64,000 bases of DNA from an uncultured Gammaproteobacteria bacterium (GTDB lineage Bacteria > Patescibacteriota > Microgenomatia > JAMCZE01): assembly GCA_964641255.1 (NCBI GenBank), contig CAZXMM010000001.1, positions 143,757 through 207,756 of the forward strand. The letters are read 5' to 3'. The notes beneath the pieces were generated by a model. That model saw nothing but the letters and a program-made list of their open reading frames with translations, was not told where the DNA came from and did not search any database. Shown piece by piece: positions 44,066 through 57,245 of this stretch. Position numbers and translations under genes: made by a program. Numbering within the stretch: the stretch's first letter is position 1; every line of letters starts with the position of its first letter.

Positions 44066-44076
44066 CGCTAAGTTAG

Positions 44077-44161
44077 CGGAGGGGGCGAGATTCGAACTCG
44101 CGGTATCTTGCGACACGGCGGTTTAGTAAACCGCTGCACTAGGCCACTATGCGACCCCTCC
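44077..44161 (-). tRNA. type-II (long variable arm) tRNA-Ser-like gene with anticodon loop UUACUAA (apparent anticodon ACU)
   Basis: hand-folded 85-nt cloverleaf: acceptor GGAGGGG/CCCCTCC, D-stem GCA/TGC, anticodon stem GCGGT/ACCGC, variable hairpin GTGTC-GCAA-GATAC, T-arm GCGAG-TTCGAAT-CTCGC. Confidence 0.6.
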
Positions 44162-44940
44162 TATTTATTTCGTTCGTGTCTGACAAACAGAAATGTTCCC
44201 ACAACTATAAACAGAGTTCCGGTAATTACCACGACCGCGATATCAATCATTGGGCTAAAAAGTACTGTTCTAGAATAATATGGTGTACCGAAGTAATAGA
44301 TACTGCGTAGCAAATCAACTGCGTAGGTCATGGGGGCAATCCGAGAAGCAATAAAGATGGGTAGGGGAAGATTGTGAATGGGATTAAATACCCCGGCCAG
44401 AAAGAATTGGGGGAAAAGCAGGAAGGGGAATATCTGATTGGCGGATTTTTGGTCGGACAGAGTGGACATGACAATAACCCCAAAAGCGCCGCCAAAGAGG
44501 GCCACTAAGAGGAAAAAGGGTAGCAGTCGGATCAGCGCTATCCAGTCCAGGGGGACACCTATTAAAATTCCCAGAGCAATGACTCCCACGATTTGGAGTA
44601 AGGAAACGCAGGTTTCCCCCAGAATCTTACCCAGTAAAATAGCATAGCGGGAGATAGGAGCAATAAACATTTCTTGAGCGAAGTCGTTTTGTCTATCCTC
44701 CACGAGAGAAATAATTCCTCCAGCTGTTGACTGAAACAAGGTCTGAGCAATCACCCCAATAAAAACGAATTCTAAAAAGTTATAGCCTAAATTCTCGCCC
44801 AAATTAGCCTGAAGACTGGTTCCTAAGACGCCAATGAAGATAGCTGGAAACACTAGACTAAAGGCGATTCGAGTTCTATCCCGCAACAGTTTGATTACGT
44901 CACGGCCGGCGATGGTAATAATGGCGTTAAGTAGTTTCAT
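44161..44940 (-). CDS. ABC-2 type transporter permease
   Basis: 259 aa, 6 TM helices, adjacent to ABC ATPase. Confidence 0.75.
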   Translation of the reverse strand: MKLLNAIITIAGRDVIKLLRDRTRIAFSLVFPAIFIGVLGTSLQANLGENLGYNFLEFVFIGVIAQTLFQSTAGGIISLVEDRQNDFAQEMFIAPISRYAILLGKILGETCVSLLQIVGVIALGILIGVPLDWIALIRLLPFFLLVALFGGAFGVIVMSTLSDQKSANQIFPFLLFPQFFLAGVFNPIHNLPLPIFIASRIAPMTYAVDLLRSIYYFGTPYYSRTVLFSPMIDIAVVVITGTLFIVVGTFLFVRHERNK

Positions 44941-45886
44941 GGTGCTGTCTGATTATTTGCACGTAAGCACTTTCCAGAGTGGGACTATGAATTTCCAAGT
45001 GGGTCAGTTGGGTTTTAAGGCCAGCTATAATTTCCTGTCCGGTATTTTCTCCGGTATTAATTTTAAATGGTCCATTCCCTTCAAAAGTCAGCCCTTTTTG
45101 GTTTAACTCTTTTGTTAAGCCCATTCGATCCTTGGCATCAAGCACAAGGTGGTTTTGGATCAGGGTTTTTTTGATTTCACTAGGAGTGCCTTTGGCTACA
45201 ATGGTCCCTTCATCCATAATGCAGACATAATCTGAAGCCTCAGCCTCCTCTAGGTAATGGGTAGTTAAGAAAATTGTTATCTCTTGGGACTTACGAATAT
45301 CTTGAAGATATTTCCAAAGATTTTGCCGGCTGATTGGGTCGAGTCCGGTGGTTGGTTCGTCGAGAAATAACACTTTGGGTTCGTGCATCAGGCTACGGAT
45401 AATCTCTAACTTACGTTTCATTCCCCCAGAGAGAGTTTTGACCGGCTTATGGAGATCCTTTTCCAGCCCTAGGACTCTGGCTAATTCGGCCACCTTGTCT
45501 TTATAGGCTTGGGGCATGAGGGTGTAGCTAGGCAGATAGGGATAGAGATTATAGAGATTAGCGTGGAAGCGAATATTTTCTTCGGCGGTTAGATTGAGAT
45601 CTAAACTGGGATTTTGAAAAATTACGCCAATTTGTTGTCTGACAGCGGCGGGATTTTTACTGACATCGTAGCCGGCGATAGTTACAGTGCCTGCACTGGG
45701 GGAAAGGATAGTTGTTAAGATAGAAATAGTCGTGGTCTTTCCGGCTCCGTTGGGGCCCAGCAGGGAAAAGAATGAACCCTCCTCGACATAAAAAGAAACC
45801 GCCTTAACGGCATCAGCAGGCGCCTTTTTGTAACGCTTGGTTAAATTAGTGACTTCGATAATTCGAGATTTAACTTTCTTGGCCAT
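44927..45886 (-). CDS. ABC transporter ATP-binding protein
   Basis: Walker A GPNGAGKTTT, signature LSGGMKRKL, Walker B LFLDEPT. Confidence 0.9.
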   Translation of the reverse strand: MAKKVKSRIIEVTNLTKRYKKAPADAVKAVSFYVEEGSFFSLLGPNGAGKTTTISILTTILSPSAGTVTIAGYDVSKNPAAVRQQIGVIFQNPSLDLNLTAEENIRFHANLYNLYPYLPSYTLMPQAYKDKVAELARVLGLEKDLHKPVKTLSGGMKRKLEIIRSLMHEPKVLFLDEPTTGLDPISRQNLWKYLQDIRKSQEITIFLTTHYLEEAEASDYVCIMDEGTIVAKGTPSEIKKTLIQNHLVLDAKDRMGLTKELNQKGLTFEGNGPFKINTGENTGQEIIAGLKTQLTHLEIHSPTLESAYVQIIRQHHETT

Positions 45887-45924
45887 TGGCTACTTTCTCA
45901 TTGCTAAAAATAACTACTAGCTAG

Positions 45925-46114
45925 GCGGTATTCATTGTACAAAATTCGAACCTTTTTTGAAACCAATCCTGACGAAGAAATCTGAACTGCACCCCGCCAC
46001 AATATTTCTGGGGCAAAGGAGGCGGGGTGATGGACTCGCCCGCGCGGAGGAGGGGTCTGGGGAGGAATCCGCGCGGGCTTCGGCTTTTTGTTTTGGCGAA
46101 ATTCTGGCGGGCTA
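45925..46114. repeat. IR-A left copy (190 bp, GC-rich, internal hairpin GCCCGCGCGG/CCGCGCGGGC)
   Basis: base-for-base reverse complement of 48866..49055, verified over the full length by hand. Confidence 0.85.
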
Positions 46115-47941
46115 TTAAAACTTGCCTTCTATATTCTCAAACAATTTGGTTAAATTATCTTTCGTCGTTGTGTCCAAATTGATTGAGGTTCCATTTTGGC
46201 AAGTTTCTAAAAATTTCTTTGCGAGCAAAACCTTATCCAGTTTACTCTTTTTTACATACTCCGAATTAGATTCCGTATAAGTTTTGCTCGTATCATTCAA
46301 CACAAATTCTTGAAAATTAGCCGGCGAGAAAATATCCTCCACACTCCCTGCGGTACTTAGCACAGCAAGAACTAAATCTTTTGTAACTAACCAATTGTCT
46401 TTTAGATTTTTCTCGCCATCCTTTTTCCCTTTGTCGTTGTCGTAGAGATATACAACCTTTCCACCCCAACCATGCAATATAGTACCTACAACTGGCATAT
46501 TTCCAGCTCCACCACCGAAAATAAAGTTCACGCTGTCTTTGCTAAGGATTTTCTTAAACGCATTTAGATAGTAGAGATCGGAAGCTCCCTCAACTACAAT
46601 ATTATTTACTTTATCTAAAGCCGTAATTCCTACACTTAATTCCAATCCAATGGCAGTCATAATAGGAGTTAAGGTTTCTTTATCCGCCAAAGCGTGAACT
46701 TTATTTTCTATTTTCGTTCCTGCTTTTTTTGTACGATGAATCAATCTAATTCGATTTAGCTTGTCGGCTTCCAAAAGATATGGCGAATGCGTTGAAAATA
46801 CTAACTGGACTTCTTTCGCTGAATCTTCAAGTTTGCTCAAAATATCTTCTTGAGCTTTGGCGTGGAGAAATAAGCCTGGTTCGTCAATCAAAATAATGTT
46901 TGGGACATCCTCATTTGCTCTTGCTGACACTTTTATATAAAACGCGAGGTGCCATTGTCTACCTTTACTTCGCAAACTTGGCTCATACGGGTAGCCGTCT
47001 TCTTGAATCCAAAACTGGAGGTCTTGAGAATCCCAATCAACGCTCAAACTTGAAACATCTTGCGTCCAAAACTTTTTGTAATCGTCATTGAGGTTGATAT
47101 TTATATCTGTTTTATGTTTCTGCTTATCGCGAGCAGTAGAAGTTTTGATCGTGGCAACATTCAAATCGCTGATTACTGACAAATCCTTAATCCATTCATT
47201 GGTTTCAAGTTCCGCAAAAGGTATCTTGTTTGGAAAAATATCTTCAAACGAATTAAAGAACACGAAATTTGGAATCCATCGTTTTAGAGCTTCTAAAAAC
47301 TTTTCCTCTATTGCAGTTAAATTTTCAAGATTTTGAATTTCTGTTTCTATCTCGGCTAAAAGTTTTGGCAAATTCTCACGATCTTTTTCATCTATTTGTG
47401 GGATATTTGGTGTAGTAGCAGTTTTGAAAGCAGTAAGAAGGGTTTTCTCATTCGTTAAATCAGAAAATTCAAAATCAAAGAAAGTTCCTCCTAACTGTGG
47501 ATATTTCGTGTGCAATGCTTTTACTTTGCCCCACTTGTCCTTGATTGATTTTTGAATTTTCTCAATTTCCTTTGCTCCAAAAAGGTCATTCTTCAGAGTA
47601 TCTTCTCCAAAAGTGTAGGTATCAGGAAAAGTTTTTATGATTTCGAGTTCAATATTGGCGATTGCTTTTTGGGTGCTACCTATCTCGGTTAAAACTTCTT
47701 TAACGGTATCTCTTTCAACGGTAAAAGTTATAGAGATTTCAGGTATCGCTTCTGGTGATTTAATAGGTTTAGCACTCTCTCTTATTTTTCCGTCCGTATC
47801 AAAATCCTCTAATGCTTCAAGAATAGAAGTTTTCCCAGATTCGTTTTTCCCAGCAAGAATGGTAATTGTATCCGTTAAATAGCAATCGCCGCTGTCGGTT
47901 ATGGACTTAAAATTTTTAATTCTAAATTTCTTAAGTTTCAT
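46115..47941 (-). CDS. OLD-family nuclease: N-terminal ABC-type ATPase + C-terminal TOPRIM domain
   Basis: Walker A LAGKNESGKTSILEAL, Walker B ILIDEPGLFLH, FSTHSP; C-terminal TOPRIM-like NIVVEGASDLYYL ... YLYDNDKGKKDGE. Confidence 0.7.
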   Translation of the reverse strand: MKLKKFRIKNFKSITDSGDCYLTDTITILAGKNESGKTSILEALEDFDTDGKIRESAKPIKSPEAIPEISITFTVERDTVKEVLTEIGSTQKAIANIELEIIKTFPDTYTFGEDTLKNDLFGAKEIEKIQKSIKDKWGKVKALHTKYPQLGGTFFDFEFSDLTNEKTLLTAFKTATTPNIPQIDEKDRENLPKLLAEIETEIQNLENLTAIEEKFLEALKRWIPNFVFFNSFEDIFPNKIPFAELETNEWIKDLSVISDLNVATIKTSTARDKQKHKTDININLNDDYKKFWTQDVSSLSVDWDSQDLQFWIQEDGYPYEPSLRSKGRQWHLAFYIKVSARANEDVPNIILIDEPGLFLHAKAQEDILSKLEDSAKEVQLVFSTHSPYLLEADKLNRIRLIHRTKKAGTKIENKVHALADKETLTPIMTAIGLELSVGITALDKVNNIVVEGASDLYYLNAFKKILSKDSVNFIFGGGAGNMPVVGTILHGWGGKVVYLYDNDKGKKDGEKNLKDNWLVTKDLVLAVLSTAGSVEDIFSPANFQEFVLNDTSKTYTESNSEYVKKSKLDKVLLAKKFLETCQNGTSINLDTTTKDNLTKLFENIEGKF

Positions 47942-47948
47942 AATCTTT

Positions 47949-48560
47949 TTAAGTATTTCTTGCCTTTCTTTCTTGAATACTTTTTAGTAGGAAGGGTGCG
48001 GCTTCTTCCTGCGTTTTACCCGATTTGATGCTATTACAAATCAGACAACTTGTTTTTAAGTTTTCTTTTGTATGCTTTCCACCCTTGTATTGAGGAGTTA
48101 GATGGTCAAGCGTTGCGTTTTCTGTAGTTACTTTCTCTCCACAATAAAAACAAGTGTATTTATCACGCTCAAAGATTTCTTTTCGTTTTTCTGCGTTGGT
48201 AAAATAATCTTCTTCAATAGGGTCAGCAGTGATTGAAAGTTTTTCTTTTACCAATGGAATTTCTTCTGGCAGAAAAATACTATAGAGCGTTCCCTCGCGG
48301 TTAGTGTCGCCAATCTTAATACACGATTTTTCTTCTAGTCCAGATACAAGTTTTGTAATATGAGCGTAATTCGATTTTTCACCGCGAGAAGAACCAAGAT
48401 TGTCAGCAATAGTCCTTTTACCAATTCGTATTTCTGCTGAACCATTTTTTATATACGAATTACGCAAAAAGAAAATGTAAAGTCCCGCTTCGTATGGAGT
48501 TAAGGATGGTAAGAGTAGATCAGTATATTGCTCAATAATTTTTTGTAAATCTTCTTTCAT
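47949..48560 (-). CDS. HNH endonuclease domain protein with N-terminal wHTH-like region
   Basis: C-terminus CFYCGEKV...LDHLTPQYKGGKHTKENLKTSCLICNSIK HNH motif. Confidence 0.7.
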   Translation of the reverse strand: MKEDLQKIIEQYTDLLLPSLTPYEAGLYIFFLRNSYIKNGSAEIRIGKRTIADNLGSSRGEKSNYAHITKLVSGLEEKSCIKIGDTNREGTLYSIFLPEEIPLVKEKLSITADPIEEDYFTNAEKRKEIFERDKYTCFYCGEKVTTENATLDHLTPQYKGGKHTKENLKTSCLICNSIKSGKTQEEAAPFLLKSIQERKARNT

Positions 48561-48563
48561 AAT

Positions 48564-48761
48564 TTATTTCACTATTTCCTCCATCGGAACGCCTAGCGAC
48601 TTGGCGATTTTTTGAATTGTTTGAACGCTTGGCTTGGTAACGACACCACCCTCAATTTTTGTAAGGGTAGAGTATTTGATATTGGCTTTTTTCGCCAAGT
48701 CGTCTTGCGTTAATCCTTGTTTTGCTCGTATCCTCTTTATGTTTTCAGATATAGTTGCCAT
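48564..48761 (-). CDS. XRE-family helix-turn-helix transcriptional regulator
   Basis: 65 aa; IKRIRAKQGLTQDDLAKKANIKYSTLTKIE HTH_3 pattern. Confidence 0.75.
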   Translation of the reverse strand: MATISENIKRIRAKQGLTQDDLAKKANIKYSTLTKIEGGVVTKPSVQTIQKIAKSLGVPMEEIVK

Positions 48762-48865
48762 AGTATGCTACTTTTGATAGTATATAAATATGAGCCATTA
48801 CTTTCTTTGCTCACAAAACAAGGATAGCAAAAATCAGAGATTTTTTCAAGGTGTATTTTTTATTT

Positions 48866-49055
48866 TAGCCCGCCAGAATTTCGCCAAAACAAAAAGCCGA
48901 AGCCCGCGCGGATTCCTCCCCAGACCCCTCCTCCGCGCGGGCGAGTCCATCACCCCGCCTCCTTTGCCCCAGAAATATTGTGGCGGGGTGCAGTTCAGAT
49001 TTCTTCGTCAGGATTGGTTTCAAAAAAGGTTCGAATTTTGTACAATGAATACCGC
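48866..49055. repeat. IR-A right copy (inverted, 190/190 identical to 45925..46114)
   Basis: see IR-A left. Confidence 0.85.
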
Positions 49056-49057
49056 AA

Positions 49058-49171
49058 ATTTTCGAAAAGGGTTTCGGAACCAAAAATATGGTCGGCGCGA
49101 AGCGCCGACTGTTCTGCATTCCCCCCACAAAATCCTGATTCTGCAAGGATTCGCCACGCTCCGCGTGGCTC
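49058..49171. repeat. IR-B left copy (114 bp)
   Basis: exact reverse complement of 50601..50714; with one mismatch the match extends 6 nt further on each side. Confidence 0.85.
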
Positions 49172-49198
49172 CTCGTTTGCCAATACAATTTCAATTTT

Positions 49199-50815
49199 AT
49201 GAATAATCACACCAGAAAGTTTTTTATATACACTCGCAAATCAACCGATACAGAGGATCGGCAAGTGAGAAGCATTTCAGACCAACTGGCCGAACTAAAA
49301 CAATTGGCGATAAAAGAGGATATTGATGTCGTTGATATTTTCGTGGAAAAACAAACCGCTAAAGCTCCGGGTCGGCCAGTATTTAATGAAATGCTTCTCC
49401 GTATCGAGCAAGGTGAGGCAAATGGAATTTTAGCTTGGCACCCCGACAGGTTAGCGAGGAATAGTGTTGACGGTGGAAAAGTTATTTACTTGCTCGATAC
49501 GGGAAAGATTGCCGAGCTGAAATTTCCAACTTTCTGGTGTGATCCGACACCGCAAGGCAAATTCATGCTCTCAATCGCTTTTTCGCAATCCAAGTATTAT
49601 GTTGATAACCTGTCGGAAAATATCAAGCGTGGTCATCGCAACAAAGTGAAAGACGGAATATGGCCTCAAATGTCTCCGCTCGGATATGTAAATGTGAAAG
49701 GTGCTGGAATTATTCCCGATATTGAAATTGCCAAACTGATTAAAAAGACATTTGAGGCATATTCGTCTGGGTCTTTCACTTTGCGACAACTCCGGGACAA
49801 GTTTAATGGACTTGGATTGAAGCGAAAAAGCGGAAAGGAACTTGCGGTGTCGAACTATCAGCAAATCCTCAAAAATCCTATCTACACAGGACTAATGAGA
49901 TATAACGGAGAGATTTTTGAGGGGAAGCACGAACCGATTATCACAAAGAAACTTTTTGATTCCGTTCAAGAAGTGATGATGAAAAAGAGCAAACCACATT
50001 CCAAAGGCCTAAAACCATTTTTATACAGAGGATTTTTCCGTTGCGGAGAATGTGGATGTTTCATCACTACCGAAACGCAGAAAGGTCATAATTATTTGAG
50101 GTGTACCAAACGGAAAAATCCTTGTGAACAAAAATATGTTCGTGAGGAAATCATCACTTCTAAAATCAGAACGGAATTACAAAAAGTTTCTTTGCCACTC
50201 GATTGGGCAAATTGGATGATTGTCGAAAACGAGAAAGATCGGCAATCAGAAACCCAATCGAGTGAGATTTTTTCTCAAAAAACAAAAGACGAAATTTCTC
50301 TTTTGGATTCCAAAATTGAGAAGCTGATGAACGCATATCTTGAAAACGCACTTTCGCTAGACGAATATCGTGATTCTAAAAACAAGTTGGTAAGCTCAAA
50401 ACAGCTTCTCAAAGAGAAATTATCAGCTTTTGAGAAAAAATCTCATAATCGGTTCGAACTTGCTGATAGATTCATAAAATCCAGTATAAACAATATGGAA
50501 TTGGCAAACGAGGGAATTCCCGAAAAGATTTTTCGGGAATTCAAAAAAGTCGGTTCGAACTTTCAAATTAAGGACCGAACCGTACTTTTTGAGCCACGCG
50601 GAGCGTGGCGAATCCTTGCAGAATCAGGATTTTGTGGGGGGAATGCAGAACAGTCGGCGCTTCGCGCCGACCATATTTTTGGTTCCGAAACCCTTTTCGA
50701 AAATCTGCGGAGGAGGCGAGATTCGAACTCGCGCGAGCTTGCGCTCAATTGCTTTCCAAGCAATCGGAATGGGCCACTATCCGACTCCTCCAACTTTAGA
50801 ATTCTATCAAATTGA
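49199..50815 (+). CDS. large serine recombinase (resolvase catalytic domain + recombinase domain + zinc ribbon + coiled coil)
   Basis: N-terminus YTRKSTDTEDRQVRSISDQ (catalytic Ser context), zinc ribbon CGECGC...C...C. The annotated 3' end runs through IR-B and into tRNA-Ser without a stop, so the functional C-terminus probably lies before about 50600. Confidence 0.8.
   Translation: MNNHTRKFFIYTRKSTDTEDRQVRSISDQLAELKQLAIKEDIDVVDIFVEKQTAKAPGRPVFNEMLLRIEQGEANGILAWHPDRLARNSVDGGKVIYLLDTGKIAELKFPTFWCDPTPQGKFMLSIAFSQSKYYVDNLSENIKRGHRNKVKDGIWPQMSPLGYVNVKGAGIIPDIEIAKLIKKTFEAYSSGSFTLRQLRDKFNGLGLKRKSGKELAVSNYQQILKNPIYTGLMRYNGEIFEGKHEPIITKKLFDSVQEVMMKKSKPHSKGLKPFLYRGFFRCGECGCFITTETQKGHNYLRCTKRKNPCEQKYVREEIITSKIRTELQKVSLPLDWANWMIVENEKDRQSETQSSEIFSQKTKDEISLLDSKIEKLMNAYLENALSLDEYRDSKNKLVSSKQLLKEKLSAFEKKSHNRFELADRFIKSSINNMELANEGIPEKIFREFKKVGSNFQIKDRTVLFEPRGAWRILAESGFCGGNAEQSALRADHIFGSETLFENLRRRRDSNSRELALNCFPSNRNGPLSDSSNFRILSN
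50601..50714. repeat. IR-B right copy (inverted), inside the 3' end of the recombinase ORF and abutting the tRNA-Ser(GGA) 3' end
   Basis: see IR-B left. Confidence 0.85.
50718..50801 (-). tRNA. tRNA-Ser (anticodon GGA)
   Basis: 84-nt type-II cloverleaf; anticodon loop TTGGAAA; T-arm GCGAG-TTCGAAT-CTCGC. Confidence 0.85.
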
Positions 50816-50830
50816 TGATACAATTGAGCT

Positions 50831-51235
50831 ATGAATGCAAAAGTTAATCATCTCCAGTTAAACATAGATTACAAAAATGCCCAATTCTATAAGGATCTAA
50901 TGGTGTTTCTTGGCTGGAAGGTGATTGGGGAGTGGGGTGACATTATGGGTTGGCAGGGCGAGGGGGAGGTGTCACTGTGGTTTAGCCAGAGTAAAAACGA
51001 GACGAAAAACGATCGTGACGGCCAGGGACTTAACCATGTAGGTCTTAAGGTGAAAGCAATTAGTGATGTTGACAAAGCCGCTAACTATTTAAAAGAGCAA
51101 GGGGTGGAGCTCCTCTATGGCACACCGCAGCATCGTCCCGATTTTACTCACAGTGAGGATACGACATACTACCAGGTCATGTTTGATTCTCCCGATAATA
51201 TCCTCTTCGAAATCATGTATACCGGCCCTAAGTAA
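50831..51235 (+). CDS. VOC (glyoxalase-fold) family protein
   Basis: 134 aa; beta-alpha-beta-beta-beta module pattern and HVGLKV motif. Confidence 0.5.
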   Translation: MNAKVNHLQLNIDYKNAQFYKDLMVFLGWKVIGEWGDIMGWQGEGEVSLWFSQSKNETKNDRDGQGLNHVGLKVKAISDVDKAANYLKEQGVELLYGTPQHRPDFTHSEDTTYYQVMFDSPDNILFEIMYTGPK

Positions 51236-51650
51236 AGGTGCTGGCTATATCTAGTAATTTTCGGTCATTAGCATGAGTTAACTTGGCTTTGGCTTCATTG
51301 GGGGGTAGCCAGAAAATGGCGGCGATTTCTTTCGGCTGGGGAGCGTCCACTCCGGAGACGTATTCCATTAAAAAATAGGTTACGATCTTAAAAATCTTTT
51401 CTCCTTTAAAGGTATAAAAAATTTTACTCTCACCCAGTTTCTTAAGCACTCGCGCCGTAATTCCTGTTTCCTCTCTCACCTCACGAATTGCTGCGTCGAT
51501 CGCTTTCTCACCGGGACCTATAAGGCCCTTAGGAAAGCCAAAGCGAATCTTGGGAAAGTCAGTACTGGGTTTGGGCTGAATCAGGAGAAATAGAGAACTA
51601 CCCCCCTGTTTTTTAAAGACTACTCCACCAGCTGAAAATTGTCTAACCAT
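51228..51650 (-). CDS. NUDIX hydrolase
   Basis: NUDIX box GFPKGLIGPGEKAIDAAIREVREETGI; start taken at the internal Met (MVRQFSAGG) so as not to overlap tRNA-Arg. Confidence 0.75.
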   Translation of the reverse strand: MVRQFSAGGVVFKKQGGSSLFLLIQPKPSTDFPKIRFGFPKGLIGPGEKAIDAAIREVREETGITARVLKKLGESKIFYTFKGEKIFKIVTYFLMEYVSGVDAPQPKEIAAIFWLPPNEAKAKLTHANDRKLLDIASTFT

Positions 51651-51667
51651 ACTTAGTACCCACAGTG

Positions 51668-51739
51668 TGCTCCTAAGAGGAATCGAACCTCCATCACAGC
51701 CTTCGGAGGGCCGTACTCTATCCATTGAGCTATAGGAGC
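51668..51739 (-). tRNA. tRNA-Arg (anticodon CCG)
   Basis: 72-nt cloverleaf; anticodon loop CTCCGAA. Confidence 0.8.
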
Positions 51740-51745
51740 AAGCGG

Positions 51746-51827
51746 CGGAGGGTAGAGGAGTCGAACCTCTTAGTCCTTGCGGACATTAGTTTTCAAGACT
51801 AACGCATTACCGCCCTGCCCACCCTCC
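51746..51827 (-). tRNA. tRNA-Ser (anticodon TGA)
   Basis: 82-nt type-II cloverleaf; anticodon loop CTTGAAA. Confidence 0.85.
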
Positions 51828-51834
51828 ACCATGG

Positions 51835-51906
51835 CGCTCCCAGACAGAATCGAACTGTCATCACTAGGTCCGCAACCTAGTACTCTATCCATTAAGCTAT
51901 GGGAGC
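51835..51906 (-). tRNA. tRNA-Arg (anticodon reads GCG)
   Basis: 72-nt cloverleaf nearly identical to the Arg-CCG gene except for the anticodon arm; loop TTGCGGA. Confidence 0.7.
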
Positions 51907-51941
51907 AGGCTCTATTTGGCTTACCAATTATAACGGTTTAG

Positions 51942-52571
51942 CTAGGAGGGTGCCACCTCGGTTGGAGTGGGGGGAGAAGTGGGTACGGTTTTTTCCGCTT
52001 TGGTAGCGAGCATTTTTTCCATAGGAAATTTTTTAGCTAACCAATCGGTCAATTTCTCGGTGGCGGATTTTTGCCAAACTTCAATAAAGGGAAGAAACTG
52101 GGCAAGGTGGTCCCTAATTACACCTTCGTCCTCACGGTGAATTAAAAAAATTAGTTGACCAAAGACGTTTCTGTAGCCCACATGCAGTAGCCGCTGATCA
52201 CCTTTATCAGAAAACCAGAACACTCCCAGCTCAATCCAGAGGTAGGTGTGGCCTTGAGAGATTATCCCCTGGGTAGTTATTCGGTGTTCCACTTCTTCTG
52301 GTTGGACTTTGGAAAGAGCAAACAGTAAAAAAACAGTCGCCCAAGATAAAACAATTAGCAACCATTCCTGGAAAAAGGCAAAAATGATGGATAACAAAAG
52401 GGCGATGGTAGCGATTGTTGTAAACGCCCCTTTGGGGTACTGCCTTTCCGGGTGGGAGAGAGACTTCCAGACAAAGAGGTCGCGAACGCCTCGTTCGGCC
52501 TTGTTAGGTCGTTGCCAAATGGAGTCACTTTCTGTTTCTGGTGTGGGACTTGGGGCAGAATTTTCCATCAA
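51942..52571 (-). CDS. hypothetical membrane protein
   Basis: 209 aa, two central TM helices, Pro/Thr-rich N-terminus. Confidence 0.35.
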   Translation of the reverse strand: MMENSAPSPTPETESDSIWQRPNKAERGVRDLFVWKSLSHPERQYPKGAFTTIATIALLLSIIFAFFQEWLLIVLSWATVFLLFALSKVQPEEVEHRITTQGIISQGHTYLWIELGVFWFSDKGDQRLLHVGYRNVFGQLIFLIHREDEGVIRDHLAQFLPFIEVWQKSATEKLTDWLAKKFPMEKMLATKAEKTVPTSPPTPTEVAPS

Positions 52572-52873
52572 GTTTAACTATACGTCCAAACCACTGGTGT
52601 GTAAAGTAAAAGAGGTCCAGAGTTTTAGTAAGAGGTTTGGCCAAGAACGGTATTGCCAACAAGTGGACTTAAGAAGTTTCCTGGATTACTGACAAGTAGT
52701 AATAAAATTACCACAACCACTAAAAGTAGCAGAAATTCGTTTTGATCGAAGTGATGGTGGTTGTTTGATCTTGGTCCACTTTTTGTCAGCCTTTTCCGTT
52801 TCATAATATTAGTATGGGATTTTGGGCGAATAATGTCAATTACCCACAAGGTTCGTTATAATAAACAATTAAA

Positions 52874-52956
52874 GGAGAGCGGGCAGGACGGTAATGCGCT
52901 GGTTTCGAAAACCAGTGCCCTAACTGGGCTAACAGGTTCGACTCCTGTGCTCTCCG
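52874..52956 (+). tRNA. tRNA-Ser (anticodon CGA)
   Basis: 83-nt type-II cloverleaf; anticodon loop TTCGAAA; T-arm ACAGG-TTCGACT-CCTGT. Confidence 0.85.
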
Positions 52957-52990
52957 CCCCAATTGAGTGTTGAGTGGATTAAGACATATA

Positions 52991-54412
52991 ATGAACCAAA
53001 TGATCGTGACTAAAAAAACTAAGATTGTGGCTACGCTCGGGCCAGCCTGTGACAGTGTCGACCAAATCAGCTCTCTTATTGGAGCCGGCGTCAATGTGTT
53101 TCGTTTTAATATGAAACACAACGAATACGCTTGGCACGAGGAGCGAATGATAAGAGTGAGACAGGTAGCCCAGCAAATGGCGGCGGTAGTGGGGATACTA
53201 ATTGACCTCCAAGGCCCCGAGATTAGGATTGCCACTAGGGATCAACAGGTGGTCAATCTAGCCAGTGGGCAGGAGGTAGTATTTGGTAATAGCTTTGCCG
53301 ATCCTACGGTACAAATTCAACTGTCTCACGAAAACATTCTCCATTCGTTAGTGGCTGGTGATAGTTTGTTAATTGATGACGGTTTCGTCGAGCTCGTGGT
53401 TGTCAAAAGGGAGGCTGACAAAGTTGTGGCCAGGTCTCTTGAGGCCGCAGTTATAAAAAATCACAAGGGTTTAAATATTCCCGCCAAGGAGATAGATTTA
53501 CCGTCGTTAACTGCCAGTGATTTAGAGAAACTGGAGTTAGCGGCAAAACTAAGAGCAGACTTTGTTGGCCTGTCTTTTTGCCGAACCAAGACTGACCTGG
53601 AAATCTTAAAAAAGGAAATGGCTACCCGCGGTGTTAGCGCTAAAATTGTGGCCAAAATTGAAAATCAACAGGCCCTTAACAATATTGACGAGATTATTGA
53701 AAACGCCGATGCCGTTATGGTGGCTAGGGGCGATTTGGGGGTGGAGGTGCCCATGGAACAGCTGGCTTTTTGGCAAACCGAGATGATAAATAAATGCCGG
53801 CTGGCCGGTAAGCCGGTGATTGTGGCGACCCAAATGCTTCAGTCGATGATAGATAATCCCCGGCCCACCCGGGCTGAAGTCACTGACGTTGCTAACGCCG
53901 TGTTGCAAGGCACTGACGCAGTAATGCTCTCTGGGGAAACCGCTTCCGGTAAATACCCGGTTAAAACTGTAGAGATTATGGCCCAAATTGCCAACTATAA
54001 TGAGCAAAAAGCCAAAGTTCTAGAGTTAAACCAATCGCCAACTACTATGACGCAGTTGATTGCTTTGGGTGGGGCGCAAATTTTGCGGCAAACTGGCAAA
54101 CTGGCTATTGACGCCATTTTAGTTTTCACCCAAACAGGTAGAACTGCTGAAGTGATTTCCTCCTTTAGGTCCACAGTGCCGATAATTGCGGTTACCGATC
54201 AACAGGATAGTATTGGGAAATTGACCTTGTCTTACGGGGTGAATCCGGTTTTTGAAGAATTTCCCAGTGGCGAATTCTTGACTCCCACTGCGGTGGTTAC
54301 TCGGCTGGTAGCCAAAGGGGTTTTTAAGAAAGACCAGACAATTTTAGTTGTCCACGGTCAGCACTGGAAGACTCCGGGCCTCACTAACTCACTGTCAATT
54401 ATTACAGTTTAA
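52991..54412 (+). CDS. pyk: pyruvate kinase
   Basis: KIVATLGPA, MVARGDLGVE and C-terminal allosteric-domain similarity; start at the ATG at 52991. Confidence 0.9.
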   Translation: MNQMIVTKKTKIVATLGPACDSVDQISSLIGAGVNVFRFNMKHNEYAWHEERMIRVRQVAQQMAAVVGILIDLQGPEIRIATRDQQVVNLASGQEVVFGNSFADPTVQIQLSHENILHSLVAGDSLLIDDGFVELVVVKREADKVVARSLEAAVIKNHKGLNIPAKEIDLPSLTASDLEKLELAAKLRADFVGLSFCRTKTDLEILKKEMATRGVSAKIVAKIENQQALNNIDEIIENADAVMVARGDLGVEVPMEQLAFWQTEMINKCRLAGKPVIVATQMLQSMIDNPRPTRAEVTDVANAVLQGTDAVMLSGETASGKYPVKTVEIMAQIANYNEQKAKVLELNQSPTTMTQLIALGGAQILRQTGKLAIDAILVFTQTGRTAEVISSFRSTVPIIAVTDQQDSIGKLTLSYGVNPVFEEFPSGEFLTPTAVVTRLVAKGVFKKDQTILVVHGQHWKTPGLTNSLSIITV

Positions 54413-55865
54413 AACTCAGGATCATTTCGGAGAGATAGCGGTCAGTTGGAGCGTAGTTATCAGTTAACAAAGGAACACTACTACTAGTGTAGTATTTTGG
54501 TACCGGTTGATAAAAAAGGGTAGGGTGGGCAGAAGTGACCAAGTCGGTGTCTATTGGTTTATTTCCGGCTACTATGACCACATTGACGGCGGCCGGGTTT
54601 TTCTGGCCGTTACTGATTGGCAATAAACTGATGTAGGCAAACTCCTGTTTTAAAGTCTGGTAATAGGCCTGAAGCATTGTTGAGTCGTTATTCTTGGTAC
54701 CCGAGACCATGTTAACTAACAACATTCCATCAGGTTTTAAGCCCCTTTTAAGCAGTTTAATAGACTCATGGGTCGTTAGTTGGTAGGGAAGGCTATAAAA
54801 CGAGGAAAAGGCGTCAAGGAAAATCAGATCATATTTTTGGTGATTGCGGCCCAGAAATATTCGCCCGTCTTCGCTGTAGTTCTTAACTTTGCTCGAGGGC
54901 CGATAACCCAGGTACCGTTGAGACAATTGTGGCAACTGCTCGTCAATTTCCACGATGTCAAGACTACTGAGGGGAAACTGGGCGAGGAAATATTTCGGTA
55001 GAGTGTAGCCCCCGCCACCAATAAGAAGAGCTGACTGCGGGTGGGGATGTAAGTGACTAAGAACGAGAAAGGCTTCTAAATAGGGGAAAACGATCTCATC
55101 GCTGCTGAGATTTATTGCCGAGTGCATTTCTTTGTTGATTTGTAAGTAACGAATCTTGTCCACATCAAAAATTTTTACAAAACTGTAGAGAGTTTCACCT
55201 TGAAAAATCAGTCCTGTCCCGCCCGGTTGACTTATAAACAGTCCCCCGGCTAGAAGAGTGAGTATTAGAAAAGACTTCCCCATTGTATTAGCTCGGTAAA
55301 GCACCAGAGCCAGAATAAGAAGGGAGACCGCCAAAATAGCAAGGATTTGGGTAAGACCCAAATAGCTGACTAGCACAAAGCCCGCTAAAAAAGTGCCCAC
55401 GATACTGCCGATAGTGGCAGTGGCGCTGAGTTTTCCGGCAATTTCCCCACTGTCCCCCACACTATTTATCGCTAGGCGGGTAGCGTAAGGTGAGACCATG
55501 GCCAAAAAAATACTGGCGGGAGAAAATAGCAGTAAACCGGCTAGGACGGAGGCCAGTCGTAAATCTGGAGTAACTATTAGGACCAAACTAAGCAGTGGGT
55601 CTTTCAGTAGGGTTAATAGACTAACGGCTACGGCTGCGGCTAATACCAGTTTGCTGAGGGTTATCAGACTTGGGTTGTTATTAGAGATTTTACCGCCGAG
55701 ATAGTAGCCCAAACTCAAGCTCCCTAGGATGACACCGATTAGCCCGGTCCAAGTGTACAGAGAGACACCCAGGTAAGGAGCCAGGATTCGTGAGCCGATG
55801 ATTTCTAGTATCATCACGACCGCTCCACAGACGAAGACAACTAGTTTTAAGGTAGTATTGATCAT
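54402..55865 (-). CDS. fusion protein: N-terminal polytopic membrane domain + C-terminal spermidine-synthase-like (class I MTase fold) domain
   Basis: about 200-aa multi-TM region; C-terminus LLIGGGGYTLPKYF ... DIVEIDEQL ... YDLIFLDAF aminopropyltransferase-like motifs. Confidence 0.6.
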   Translation of the reverse strand: MINTTLKLVVFVCGAVVMILEIIGSRILAPYLGVSLYTWTGLIGVILGSLSLGYYLGGKISNNNPSLITLSKLVLAAAVAVSLLTLLKDPLLSLVLIVTPDLRLASVLAGLLLFSPASIFLAMVSPYATRLAINSVGDSGEIAGKLSATATIGSIVGTFLAGFVLVSYLGLTQILAILAVSLLILALVLYRANTMGKSFLILTLLAGGLFISQPGGTGLIFQGETLYSFVKIFDVDKIRYLQINKEMHSAINLSSDEIVFPYLEAFLVLSHLHPHPQSALLIGGGGYTLPKYFLAQFPLSSLDIVEIDEQLPQLSQRYLGYRPSSKVKNYSEDGRIFLGRNHQKYDLIFLDAFSSFYSLPYQLTTHESIKLLKRGLKPDGMLLVNMVSGTKNNDSTMLQAYYQTLKQEFAYISLLPISNGQKNPAAVNVVIVAGNKPIDTDLVTSAHPTLFYQPVPKYYTSSSVPLLTDNYAPTDRYLSEMILSFKL

Positions 55866-55957
55866 AATTTTGGCGGTGTTTATTAGAAAATATTCCTATG
55901 GACCACTGGCGACTTACTATGAAATCCTAAAGGATTTAACTCGAGCAGCCGATTGTT

Positions 55958-56896
55958 TTAGTTTTTATCTATATGCCTTTCAAAATCGTTCACTAAGGTA
56001 ACTACCGAGTCGCCTTTGCCTTCTTGCTCCCAATCAATTTTTGGCGGGTGGTAATTTGGAGGACGAAAATCAGTCATACTTTTATAGTCGCTTTCTGACA
56101 TCTGAAAATCTGTTGACGCGACATTTTCGTCTATATGATTATTATTCGTAGAAAACACCATCGGACTGTATCCCAAATAGCAAATCCAATTTAATATGAT
56201 TTGGCTTTGGGTCTTACCATATTTCTTCGCGAGCTGGACAAGAAGTTGCCAATTATGTTCGAACGTCAAACTTCGCCGAAGCGGCCGCCAGATAATGTTT
56301 TTAACCCCTAACTCGTCGCAAGTAGCAAAAACTCCTTTGTCTTGCAATGCCCTGACCTCAAAACTGAGATGTCCCTCGTGTGCATAAAATTTATCACCAA
56401 ATTTTTTCTTAAAGGCTCTAAGACATTTCGGACTTGCGTTTGAAAGACTAACAAATCTTGTTTTTCCAGATTTTAGAAGTTCGTGTAAAAGAGAGAAACT
56501 TGGTTGTTCGCCAAATTTAGCTATAAAAGATTGGGTGATAAGAGTCGAATCGGCATAATCAGTTTCCATTATTTCATAAAATCTGGTGATGTCTTGATTA
56601 GCGATTTCTATTGACGCTAAATCTCTCGGATATAAAGAGTGTGTTAAAAATATATCTTGCCTATCGATAGAGCTTTCATCGAGAGCCTCTTTAAAAAGAG
56701 TGAGAGATTCGCCATGACCATACCCTAAGGCAATCTCGGTGAAATTGACATTTTTCTTGAGAGTGTGGACTAGAGCATCAACGTATTTTTTACCCCCAAC
56801 CCTTTCGGTAAGAGCCATATCTCTATGGCCTCGTCCTCCGACACCGTAAGTCCCGATACCAATTTTTGATAAATTCTTACCAGATAAAGTTTTCAT
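55958..56896 (-). CDS. aldo/keto reductase family oxidoreductase
   Basis: IGIGTYGVGG N-terminal motif and AKR-fold length. Confidence 0.7.
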   Translation of the reverse strand: MKTLSGKNLSKIGIGTYGVGGRGHRDMALTERVGGKKYVDALVHTLKKNVNFTEIALGYGHGESLTLFKEALDESSIDRQDIFLTHSLYPRDLASIEIANQDITRFYEIMETDYADSTLITQSFIAKFGEQPSFSLLHELLKSGKTRFVSLSNASPKCLRAFKKKFGDKFYAHEGHLSFEVRALQDKGVFATCDELGVKNIIWRPLRRSLTFEHNWQLLVQLAKKYGKTQSQIILNWICYLGYSPMVFSTNNNHIDENVASTDFQMSESDYKSMTDFRPPNYHPPKIDWEQEGKGDSVVTLVNDFERHIDKN

Positions 56897-57155
56897 AATT
56901 ATCTCAATAAATCTTCAACGAAAACGCTGCGGGCTTTAGCAATTTTTGTTACCATCTGTGCTCCTGACTTGGTTACACAATTGCTTTCGATCTTGGCGAG
57001 AGTGGAATACTTGTATCCGTAAGATTATGATAGCAATTTTTTTAATTCTCTCCAAGAAAGCCCAGCTTCTACCTTAGTAAATAACGGGCTGCAATATCAC
57101 AAAAAACGGCTGGGGAGTCCGCGTAGCGGCCGAGCCCATGACTCCATTTCCTAAC

Positions 57156-57245
57156 TGGCGGAGGAGACAGGATTCGAACCTGCGCGAGCCTTGCGGCTCA
57201 GAGAGTTAGCAACCCTCCGCAATGGACCAACTATGCGACTCCTCC
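57156..57245 (-). tRNA. tRNA-Ser (anticodon GCT), 3' CCA encoded
   Basis: 90-nt type-II cloverleaf; anticodon loop TTGCTAA. Confidence 0.85.

Follow-up and report, generated by a model that had tools for sequence, protein, structure and literature searches.

Inverted repeats and genes beside tRNA-Ser(GGA)

We analyzed positions 45925 to 50815 of a 64-kb stretch (64,000 nt of contig CAZXMM010000001.1, assembly GCA_964641255.1; the whole stretch is called the window, and all coordinates refer to it), where a gene for a large serine recombinase (LSR, below also the integrase), a cargo operon and two pairs of long inverted repeats (IR-A and IR-B) lie against a tRNA-Ser(GGA) gene and together make up a candidate integrated element. 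The features are given below in order, with a and a' standing for the arms of IR-A, b and b' for those of IR-B, ORF for open reading frame and uORF for upstream ORF.

45925..50706 (or 45929..50710, GCGG at both ends), no strand: whole integrated element, 4782 bp, delimited with the empty site in L167
45925..45928, plus strand: left core GCGG, attL-type (host flank, GCGG, arm a), from junction comparison
45925..46114, plus strand: arm a, outer copy, P'-type; GCGG, 16 nt and TTCGAA follow one another within its first 28 nt
46115..47941, minus strand: cargo gene 3, OLD-like / AAA_15 ATPase with a weak TOPRIM match (Pfam AAA_15 2.5e-21; PADLOC Old 1.4e-27, AriA, PtuA, GajA)
47949..48560, minus strand: cargo gene 2, HNH endonuclease (Pfam HNH_5 / HNH; PADLOC PtuB-like)
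48564..48761, minus strand: XRE-type helix-turn-helix (HTH) regulator, 65 amino acids, family backbone gene (Pfam HTH_3 5e-17)
48762..48865, no strand: unique control region with face-to-face promoter-like sites (consensus matches only)
48790..49206, plus strand: uORF-X, stop-free leader of 138 codons, from an ATG just outside a' via a', core and b; its stop overlaps the integrase start (ATGAATAA)
48866..49055, minus strand: arm a', inner copy, reverse complement of a, from the repeat search
49052..49055, minus strand: internal core CCGC (GCGG on the minus strand) of an intact attP-like junction, from junction comparison
49052..49171, minus strand: arm b, inner copy, ending 27 nt upstream of the integrase ATG, from the repeat search
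49199..50815, plus strand: large serine recombinase ORF, 538 codons as integrated, with the body to about residue 464 and the tail via b', core and tRNA antisense
50591..50710, plus strand: arm b', outer copy, P-type, in the 3' end of the integrase ORF, with one mismatch to b at 50705
50653..50682, plus strand: terminator-like hairpin and T-run in b', ahead of any stop codon
50707..50791, minus strand: tRNA-Ser(GGA), the target (ARAGORN and Rfam); its last 4 nt (GCGG on the plus strand) are the right core, attR-type

The repeat search placed the arms of IR-A at 45925–46114 and 48866–49055 (190 nt, 100% complementary, 2751 nt between them), exactly as an earlier note on this DNA had claimed. 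The arms of IR-B were found at 49052–49171 and 50591–50710 (120 nt, 99% complementary, 1419 nt between them); the 114 nt of perfect repeat in that note stood (49058–49171 and 50591–50704, with the single mismatch at 50705), but its right arm, 50601..50714, was 10 nt off. The end of tRNA-Ser(GGA) had likewise been set at 50718, whereas the tRNA lies at 50707–50791 and the right arm overlaps its last 4 nt, and the recombinase gene was thought to be enclosed by IR-B, whereas ORF 49199..50815 runs through the right arm and the tRNA antisense strand. The inner arms of IR-A and IR-B overlap in CCGC (49052–49055) and form together an intact, inverted block of 306 nt (a' + CCGC + b, 48866–49171; block X) between the cargo operon and the integrase gene. 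The contrast between GC-rich arms and AT-rich cargo described in the note was confirmed (GC about 0.51 in the arms, 0.31–0.42 in the cargo, about 0.45 in the flanks and about 0.36 in the whole element). Read inward, arm a has GC-rich hairpins plus a hairpin with a T-run facing the cargo, and arm b has the hairpins GTCGGCGC-GAA-GCGCCGAC and GCCACGC-TCC-GCGTGGC. The arm sequences had no further copies within the window (0 matches in 100 shuffles), and an Rfam search at E<=1 matched only the tRNA and no known RNA in the arms.

Relatives of the integrase were found 170 times among GTDB species genomes and 425 times among JGI metagenome contigs, almost all in metagenome-assembled genomes (MAGs) of Patescibacteria. 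We retrieved 160 relative loci with 75–95% integrase identity, and each was compared with itself and scanned for tRNA genes (individual loci are cited by L number). Such an arrangement might come from an assembly artefact or chimeric joint, which the earlier note had allowed for, or from two unrelated IR-flanked transposons side by side. Many contigs do break in the arms, as expected for repeats, and the repeats are why MAG contigs often break at element loci. In addition, L131 (6676 nt) is a perfect palindrome with 1971-nt arms (tRNA, b-integrase-b', a-cargo-a', b-integrase-b', tRNA), but L128 carries this element with an ordinary left flank, and L131 most likely arose when an assembler walked through X. 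Against an artefact, four assembler types (SPAdes, MEGAHIT, IDBA-type and Logan) agree on the junctions in >100 samples. The Logan assemblies of SRR14932608/9, which were made independently, contain three contigs that match true repeats collapsed at k=31: the first is the ABC-gene host flank with 30 nt of arm a, the second is 2811 nt and consists of the 2751-nt cargo with 30 nt of arm a on each end, and the third begins 30 nt within b'. Against two transposons, no DDE or other transposase was found, a and b' at the element's ends are unrelated, the target is not duplicated past the 4-nt core and the element is inserted precisely at the tRNA end. Both explanations were rejected as having practically negligible probability.

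Precise insertion and a probable inverted internal attP

Three junctions could be compared, namely host flank/GCGG/a at the left end, b'/GCGG/a in block X (on the other strand) and b'/GCGG/tRNA at the right end. GCGG is the sole sequence common to all three, and this was likewise found in about 20 further complete elements. The two element ends, a and b', are unrelated to one another and each is mirrored by one half of block X, which contradicts the suggestion that the IRs are the terminal repeats of a small mobile element. An empty site is present in the syntenic relative L167, where tRNA-Ser(GGA) ends in ..CCGC and is followed by 38 nt and the ABC ATG; when the 4782 bp between the GCGG copies are taken out of the window, the 38-nt tRNA-to-ABC spacing is identical to that of L167. 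The two loci have the order NUDIX / tRNA-Ser(GGA) / ABC / ABC-2 / DnaG / sigma-70 in common, and the ABC ATPase of L167 is 80% identical to the window's. Precise insertion relative to this empty site, with junctions sharing only GCGG, supports the mobile-element part of the earlier note's interpretation, in the form of a recombinase-driven element whose repeat ends are recombination sites. Read from the junction sequences, the pattern is that of predicted attL, attP and attR sites, and its oddity is the intact attP-type site that lies inverted inside the integrated element. Two IR pairs would exist because the element carries its attachment region twice, once split by integration and once intact and inverted. 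We consider it very probable that the locus is an integrative element with an internal inverted attP.

The half-sites also support such a reading of the junctions. TTCGAA stands 16 nt from GCGG in 68/68 distinct arm a sequences and 11 nt from it in the tRNA T-arm, and a sister family at tRNA-Ala showed the same 5-nt offset for CGAACCC. According to the Rutherford / Van Duyne model, attP half-sites have their zinc-ribbon-domain motif about 5 bp farther outward than attB half-sites, and known LSR elements are alike in having P-type and B-type half-site spacings 5 bp apart. The host left half-site is not conserved among loci, and the left flank elsewhere often has a hairpin and T-run on the tRNA strand, as expected just downstream of a tRNA gene.

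Some other features of the arms and flanks were recorded. A G-rich motif common to a (TCTGGGGAGGAAT, ~46040–46070) and b' (TGTGGGGGGAATGC, ~50625–50645) is on the same strand and 70–140 nt from the core in both; it could be an accessory-protein site, which large serine integrases, to our knowledge, normally do without. The outer arm a contains at 45934–45961 (minus strand) a promoter-like TTCAAA-16-TACAAT aimed outward at the host ABC-transporter operon, which is not conserved in other lineages, and for the same reason the copy within a' was rejected as a general integrase promoter. A glyoxalase-family gene (50831–51235) between NUDIX and tRNA-Ser(GGA) is absent in L167 (552–582) and makes a second small indel at the locus. 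Five tRNA-Ser genes (ACU, GGA, UGA, CGA, GCU) are clustered in 13 kb (window 44076–57245), and the four unoccupied ones are potential targets of the internal attP, recombination with which would invert or delete host DNA. One of the five has a genuine A34 anticodon, ACU (loop TTACTAA, 44076–44161, minus strand), in addition to a normal tRNA-Ser(GCU) at 57156–57245; the ACU gene is also present in L005, L015, L056, L060, L077, L105, L116, L121, L126, L128, L165 and L166, and A34 tRNAs besides tRNA-Arg are, as far as we know, unusual in bacteria.

A stop-less integrase gene with a predicted exchangeable tail

Pfam domains found in the integrase were Resolvase (PF00239, 1.1e-18, residues 9–154), Recombinase (PF07508, 1.8e-15) and Zn_ribbon_recom (PF13408, 2.6e-7), and the catalytic motif Y-x-R-x-S-T is present in the translation as YTRKST. 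Partial matches were obtained to NCBIfam CcrB / XisF-like models and, in the PDB, to the SPbeta integrase (2e-7), and an exact look-up of the protein found no record. By its domain architecture the protein is assigned to the large serine recombinases, and attP x attB catalysis is predicted for it.

The reading frame has no stop of its own before it leaves the element's last arm. In none of 99 distinct b' arms was there an in-frame stop, compared with 6–174 stops in total in the other five frames, and the integrase stop is found from 11 nt before to 420 nt past the outer end of b', mostly in tRNA-antisense or flank. Variability of b' by codon position was 0.51/0.51/0.56, which means no periodicity, and hairpin pairing was kept by compensatory changes, so b' is constrained as nucleic acid; its reading as a constrained coding sequence was rejected, although it is open in all 99 arms. 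Across the b'/GCGG/a junction, the same frame enters arm a for 16–19 codons and then meets a stop. In the window this natural tail is YSLYKIRTFFETNPDEEI followed by the stop, the conserved tail peptide in arm a is [YC]xL[DY][KE][IV]Rx[FY]F[EG]xNPxD.., and entropy by codon position was 0.52/0.45/0.78, which is codon-like. By sequence, the natural C-terminus thus exists only at an attP-type junction (circle, tandem array, L017), and integration replaces it with arbitrary residues from tRNA antisense.

Cargo operon and a predicted translated leader through block X

The cargo operon (HTH, HNH, ATPase) is divergent from the integrase gene, and the stop codon of cargo gene 3 abuts arm a. An HTH homologue was found at the X-proximal cargo end in 24/25 elements where it was detectable, within a module of about 300 nt that is common to elements with differing cargo. 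Family cargo includes type II restriction-modification systems (HindVP, HpaII, TdeIII, EcoRI-type, C5 methylases) and OLD/HNH genes, and further trypsin-like peptidases, LysE, Ltp lipoprotein and metabolic enzymes. No transfer or replication genes were seen in the cargo of the element family.

Between the HTH gene and a', a rightward promoter-like TTGCCA-17-TAGTAT (48755–48783, TG-extended) stands six nt ahead of ATG 48790, facing a leftward promoter-like TTGAAA-17-TATCCT (48849–48821); both are consensus matches. The leader frame that starts at this ATG (+1 relative to the integrase ATG) was stop-free, with a median of 420 nt, in 60/68 distinct loci, and it ended with ATGA in 31 loci, with ATGAATAA in 20 and 14 nt upstream of the integrase start in 7; the integrase gene itself has no Shine-Dalgarno sequence. 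uORF-X showed no Pfam match and no codon periodicity, so it was rejected as a real protein and retained as a translated leader only; translation itself, not a protein, seems to be conserved. A TAnnnT (-10-like) box was found 4–9 nt before the uORF ATG in 36/60 loci, often with an upstream TG, compared with 10% of control ATGs, and a box so near the ATG suggests that the uORF-X transcript is leaderless. Since the promoter and the uORF start are in the cargo module, the integrase module would be promoter-less as well as stop-less. We lean towards a real function for both the tail rewriting and the leader coupling, though with a good deal of reserve.

The two copies of an arm within one element were more alike than the nearest other element in 27/33 cases for IR-A and 23/38 for IR-B, and about one third of IR-B pairs were hybrids with 74–97% identity. 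This likeness together with the hybrid pairs implies that the copies undergo gene conversion or are selected for pairing, and that elements now and then exchange sequence with one another.

Element family across Patescibacteria

The same plan was found in >100 loci, and the cargo between the repeats was highly variable, as asked in the earlier note's suggested comparison with other genomes. Neither this recurrence nor the role of the core at the tRNA end, the stop-less frame and the translated leader had been recognised in that note. About 120 nt of IR-B surround the integrase body; the outer end of IR-B overlaps the 3' end of a tRNA-Ser gene (any anticodon) by 4–6 nt, with the tRNA always opposite to the integrase strand; and the a'/core/b block is upstream of the integrase in essentially all loci. 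Where contigs reach far enough, which was the case for 41 elements, IR-A of 100–405 nt encloses 1.3–6.4 kb of cargo. The sister family, with a 40% identical integrase at tRNA-Ala(GGC), has the same double-repeat plan, and its protein homology stops where b' begins. One such element was found as a second element on the L070 contig (9632–13062), with core GTGG, inverted repeats of 154 and 132 nt and a leader ORF across the internal block.

Rearranged loci indicate that the attachment sites remain in use. Tandem arrays with b'/a junctions in L007, L069 and L156 imply that the site made of b' and the tRNA is still targetable. In L001, L056 and L060 two different tRNA-Ser genes stand on either side of the integrase module, both with 3' ends facing the module, and in L017 the order is tRNA-Ser, b-integrase-b', a. 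These four loci are what recombination of X with a second tRNA-Ser gene would be expected to produce, and by this comparison of layouts the internal copy X is a putatively live attP that is rarely used. Integrase-driven rearrangements between tRNA genes have reportedly been proposed in Thermococcales (PMC5495485). Apart from the tandem arrays and L017, b'/a junctions were seen only in L131, which is probably misassembled. No terminal overlaps indicating circular forms were found in any whole contig of the 160 loci, but assemblies cannot resolve circles. A phage origin was rejected, as the family is essentially absent from IMG/VR, where no viral contig gave a convincing integrase relative.

Insertions away from tRNA genes were found in L025 (~1669), L055 (~1815), L064 (~9497), L119 (~3294), L138 (~3228) and L031 (~9500), at another conserved sequence ending in ..CCGC(CA), ..ACTCGRGT..CCCTTGTAAGGGTATTTTAGCATATT..GGGTCGG.., with no Rfam match and no tRNA call; it may be an unannotated small RNA gene. 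A LOOT RNA (Rfam RF03000, 82 bits) was found at L025 8735–8856 (minus strand), about 7 kb from the element. Hairpin loops flipped relative to other lineages were seen in arm a of L011 (5994–6199; GCAGGAGGGGTCTGGGGAGGAATGC versus its reverse complement) and in the arm b hairpin of L041 and L053 (TCC versus GGA), and they are a signature of template switching or small inversions at stem-loops. MAGs labelled Bdellovibrionales, Gammaproteobacteria, Bacteroidota and Lentisphaerae also carry the element (L003, L016, L031, L041, L050, L053, L062–L065, L073, L076), but the flanking genes are Patescibacteria-like, so these contigs are probably mis-binned or mislabelled.

Orientation of the modules and the inversion switch

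A recombinase gene near inverted repeats, with perfect IRs whose outer ends are crossover sites, would also fit an inversion switch, in which the LSR inverts the cargo segment, the integrase segment or both, or RecA does so by way of the perfect arms. A flip of the cargo would carry the promoter and leader start, which are in the cargo module, away from the integrase and so silence it, with the promoter then aimed at the host flank; a flip of the integrase segment would, by sequence, swap the integrase tail, the natural one being re-attached from a'. The position of the promoter and uORF start in the cargo module is in line with such a switch, as is the conservation of a natural tail that is unused when integrated, and the tandem arrays mean that attR-type sites stay usable targets. 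By gene layout, the cargo is indeed inverted in L030 and L067. However, these were the only two exceptions, as the cargo orientation was the same in 39/41 complete elements, and the integrase pointed towards the tRNA in all standard loci (>100 independent genomes). Frequent flipping would randomise orientation, so the inversion switch proposed in the earlier note is not supported as a freely running one. In addition, the cargo operon has its own promoter, so that its expression would not change on flipping, a flipped integrase gene would lose its leader, and the source-sample unitig graph was without variant junctions. We therefore regard an inversion switch as unlikely, though the cargo may flip rarely or under regulation.

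As to why block X is retained, a role mainly in expression control (leader, operator) rather than inversion is an attractive possibility, to which we give somewhat less than an even chance.

Proposed life cycle

The best overall explanation, which we hold to be likely, is a 4782-bp element inserted by its LSR, with the following life cycle and with X retained as leader and operator. The LSR would have placed the element right at the 3' terminus of tRNA-Ser(GGA), crossing over within GCGG. Excision by attL x attR would release a circle of 4.78 kb that contains the 306-bp block twice, in inverted orientation. On this circle the integrase gene would run on into its natural tail and would be expressed by leaderless transcription and by termination-reinitiation through X. 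The integrase would then recombine the block at the 3' end of its gene with a tRNA-Ser gene, reading the tRNA T-arm as a B'-type half-site, 5 bp nearer the core than the matching arm a motif. This integration event would alter the integrase's own C-terminus, and the other block X would stay as leader and probably as operator.

Several points weigh against this life cycle. Since b' has no codon periodicity, the tail translated there is unconstrained as protein, and the periodicity of arm a may be due in part to DNA-site constraints. Promoter, leaderless start and translational coupling all come from sequence analysis alone. An operator would need about 50 bp, but X has 306 bp, and an operator role leaves the 99–100% identity of the copies across diverging lineages unexplained. 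Integration via the 3' copy about 20x more often than via the identical 5' copy is likewise unexplained. No directionality factor was recognised and none was tested for, and the sole conserved accessory gene is the 65-amino-acid HTH. Neither an excised circle nor an empty-site read nor an alternative orientation was seen in the assemblies, which cannot resolve them, and the Logan unitigs had no branch at the core.

A bolder version of the same scheme is a self-rewiring cassette, in which two orientation-agnostic modules are set apart by two mirror attP copies and each recombination rewrites the integrase. The modules would be the cargo with the only promoter and the integrase body with neither promoter nor stop. 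Recombination at the 3' copy would swap the conserved C-terminal peptide for junk, and a cargo flip, or recombination at the 5' copy, would separate the integrase from its leader. With isoforms that differ by state, the element would limit its own integration and need no separate directionality factor. In addition, when these naturally competent bacteria take up single-stranded DNA, the mirror copy might help it to rebuild a duplex attP. We think this version rather doubtful, but, if true, serine-recombinase elements would have a new principle of design, and Patescibacteria would exchange genes mainly by way of this family.

The mirrored arms suggest another possibility, single-strand fold-back during natural transformation: a/a' and b/b' would pair in single-stranded DNA and X would splint the ends into a double-stranded attP dumbbell, which would permit circularisation or integration without prior excision. 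Each arm has a perfect partner and both stems would stack on the continuous X strand. Folded single-strand sites have precedents in the attP of CTX phage and the attC of integrons. Selection for pairing would account for arm identity, the family is missing from viral contigs and has no transfer or replication genes, and it is spread over very divergent Patescibacteria at 75–95% identity. But the argument is purely geometric. The integrase is not expressible from single-stranded DNA, serine recombination of a dumbbell with the duplex chromosome would give hairpin-capped ends, and about one third of IR-B pairs persist in spite of being imperfect (74–97%). Fold-back is thus very unlikely. Mechanisms that rebuild the repeats with every transposition, by hairpin-capped chromosome intermediates, fold-back synthesis or two-tRNA cassette exchange were dropped, as they predict nothing beyond the two-attP circle.

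The predicted circle, two unique segments split by two inverted 306-bp blocks with one site each, is also what would be expected of an amphimeric replicon of the yeast 2-micron kind, a free circle that flips for copy-number amplification. No Rep or origin-like families were found among 105 cargo proteins, however, no contig was circular, and all copies were chromosomal and at tRNA genes, which makes such a replicon extremely improbable.

Comparison with known systems

Compared with LSR elements and prophages (phiC31, Bxb1, A118, SPbeta SprA, SCCmec CcrAB, Tn4451 TnpX), the element has the same resolvase, recombinase and zinc-ribbon architecture, a crossover at a very short core without long direct repeats, and its att site beside the recombinase gene. 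Unlike them, it keeps a second intact attP inverted inside, with arms of 120 and 100–405 nt, its recombinase ORF has no stop and crosses attP, with expression predicted to run through a long translated leader, its target is the 3' end of tRNA-Ser, and a directionality factor is not apparent. The 3' ends of tRNA genes are usually used by tyrosine integrases. The tRNA islands and phages of that class (P4-like islands and phage mv4 at tRNA-Ser) are similar in being small cargo islands at a tRNA 3' end with the tRNA left intact, in forming tandem arrays and in carrying defence and restriction-modification cargo, but here the recombinase is of the serine class and only 4 nt are shared, with no duplicated direct repeat of the tRNA 3' end.

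Serine invertases (Hin, Gin, Cin; phage P1 C segment) likewise have IRs with outer-end crossover around a gene block by the serine recombinase gene; the P1 C segment has 0.6-kb inverted repeats with crossover sites at the outer ends. These are small enzymes that need an enhancer and Fis, and both orientations coexist, whereas the present element has a large integrase, near-fixed orientation and outer sites that are hybrid junctions with host DNA. The yeast 2-micron plasmid resembles the predicted free form, two unique segments and two long IRs each with a recombinase site, and both segments are built to read correctly into either repeat. It has FLP sites inside 599-bp inverted repeats, but FLP belongs to the tyrosine recombinases and the plasmid replicates autonomously, and neither replication functions nor a free circle was found here.

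Recombination that itself alters a gene product or its expression, so that free and integrated states are told apart without a separate sensor, is also a feature of integration-dependent immunity and of Tn4451. In mycobacteriophages attP reportedly lies in the repressor gene and integration removes a C-terminal tag (work ascribed to Broussard et al. 2013), and in Tn4451 a circle-junction promoter serves TnpX. The difference is that here the recombinase's own C-terminus and stop are exchanged and the promoter-leader link is kept by the internal copy. Tn3 and gamma-delta, with res between divergent tnpA and tnpR, are alike in having a serine-recombinase site in the control region of divergent genes, an arrangement that suggests autoregulation. 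The res site of Tn3 is not a copy of the element ends, and the resolvase acts on directly repeated res in cointegrates.

Significance

Full-text literature searches found no description of this element family or its architecture. The family is apparently undescribed, although the enzyme and the basic reaction are already known; what appears to be new is the mirrored internal attP, the frame crossing attP, the translated leader, the tRNA-Ser target and the wide spread in Patescibacteria. The integrase targets a universally conserved tRNA end, its frame crosses its attachment site and a spare attP is kept as its leader; it lends itself to the study of how directionality is controlled when no accessory factor is known. 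Being compact, with a conserved target in tRNA-Ser and a wide range of hosts, it might also be developed into a genetic tool for near-intractable organisms. Patescibacteria (Candidate Phyla Radiation) account for a sizeable part of bacterial diversity and have tiny genomes with few recognised mobile elements, and the way in which they exchange genes is an open question. Given its spread across lineages labelled as different candidate phyla and its defence and restriction-modification cargo, it may be a major shuttle of genes between lineages.

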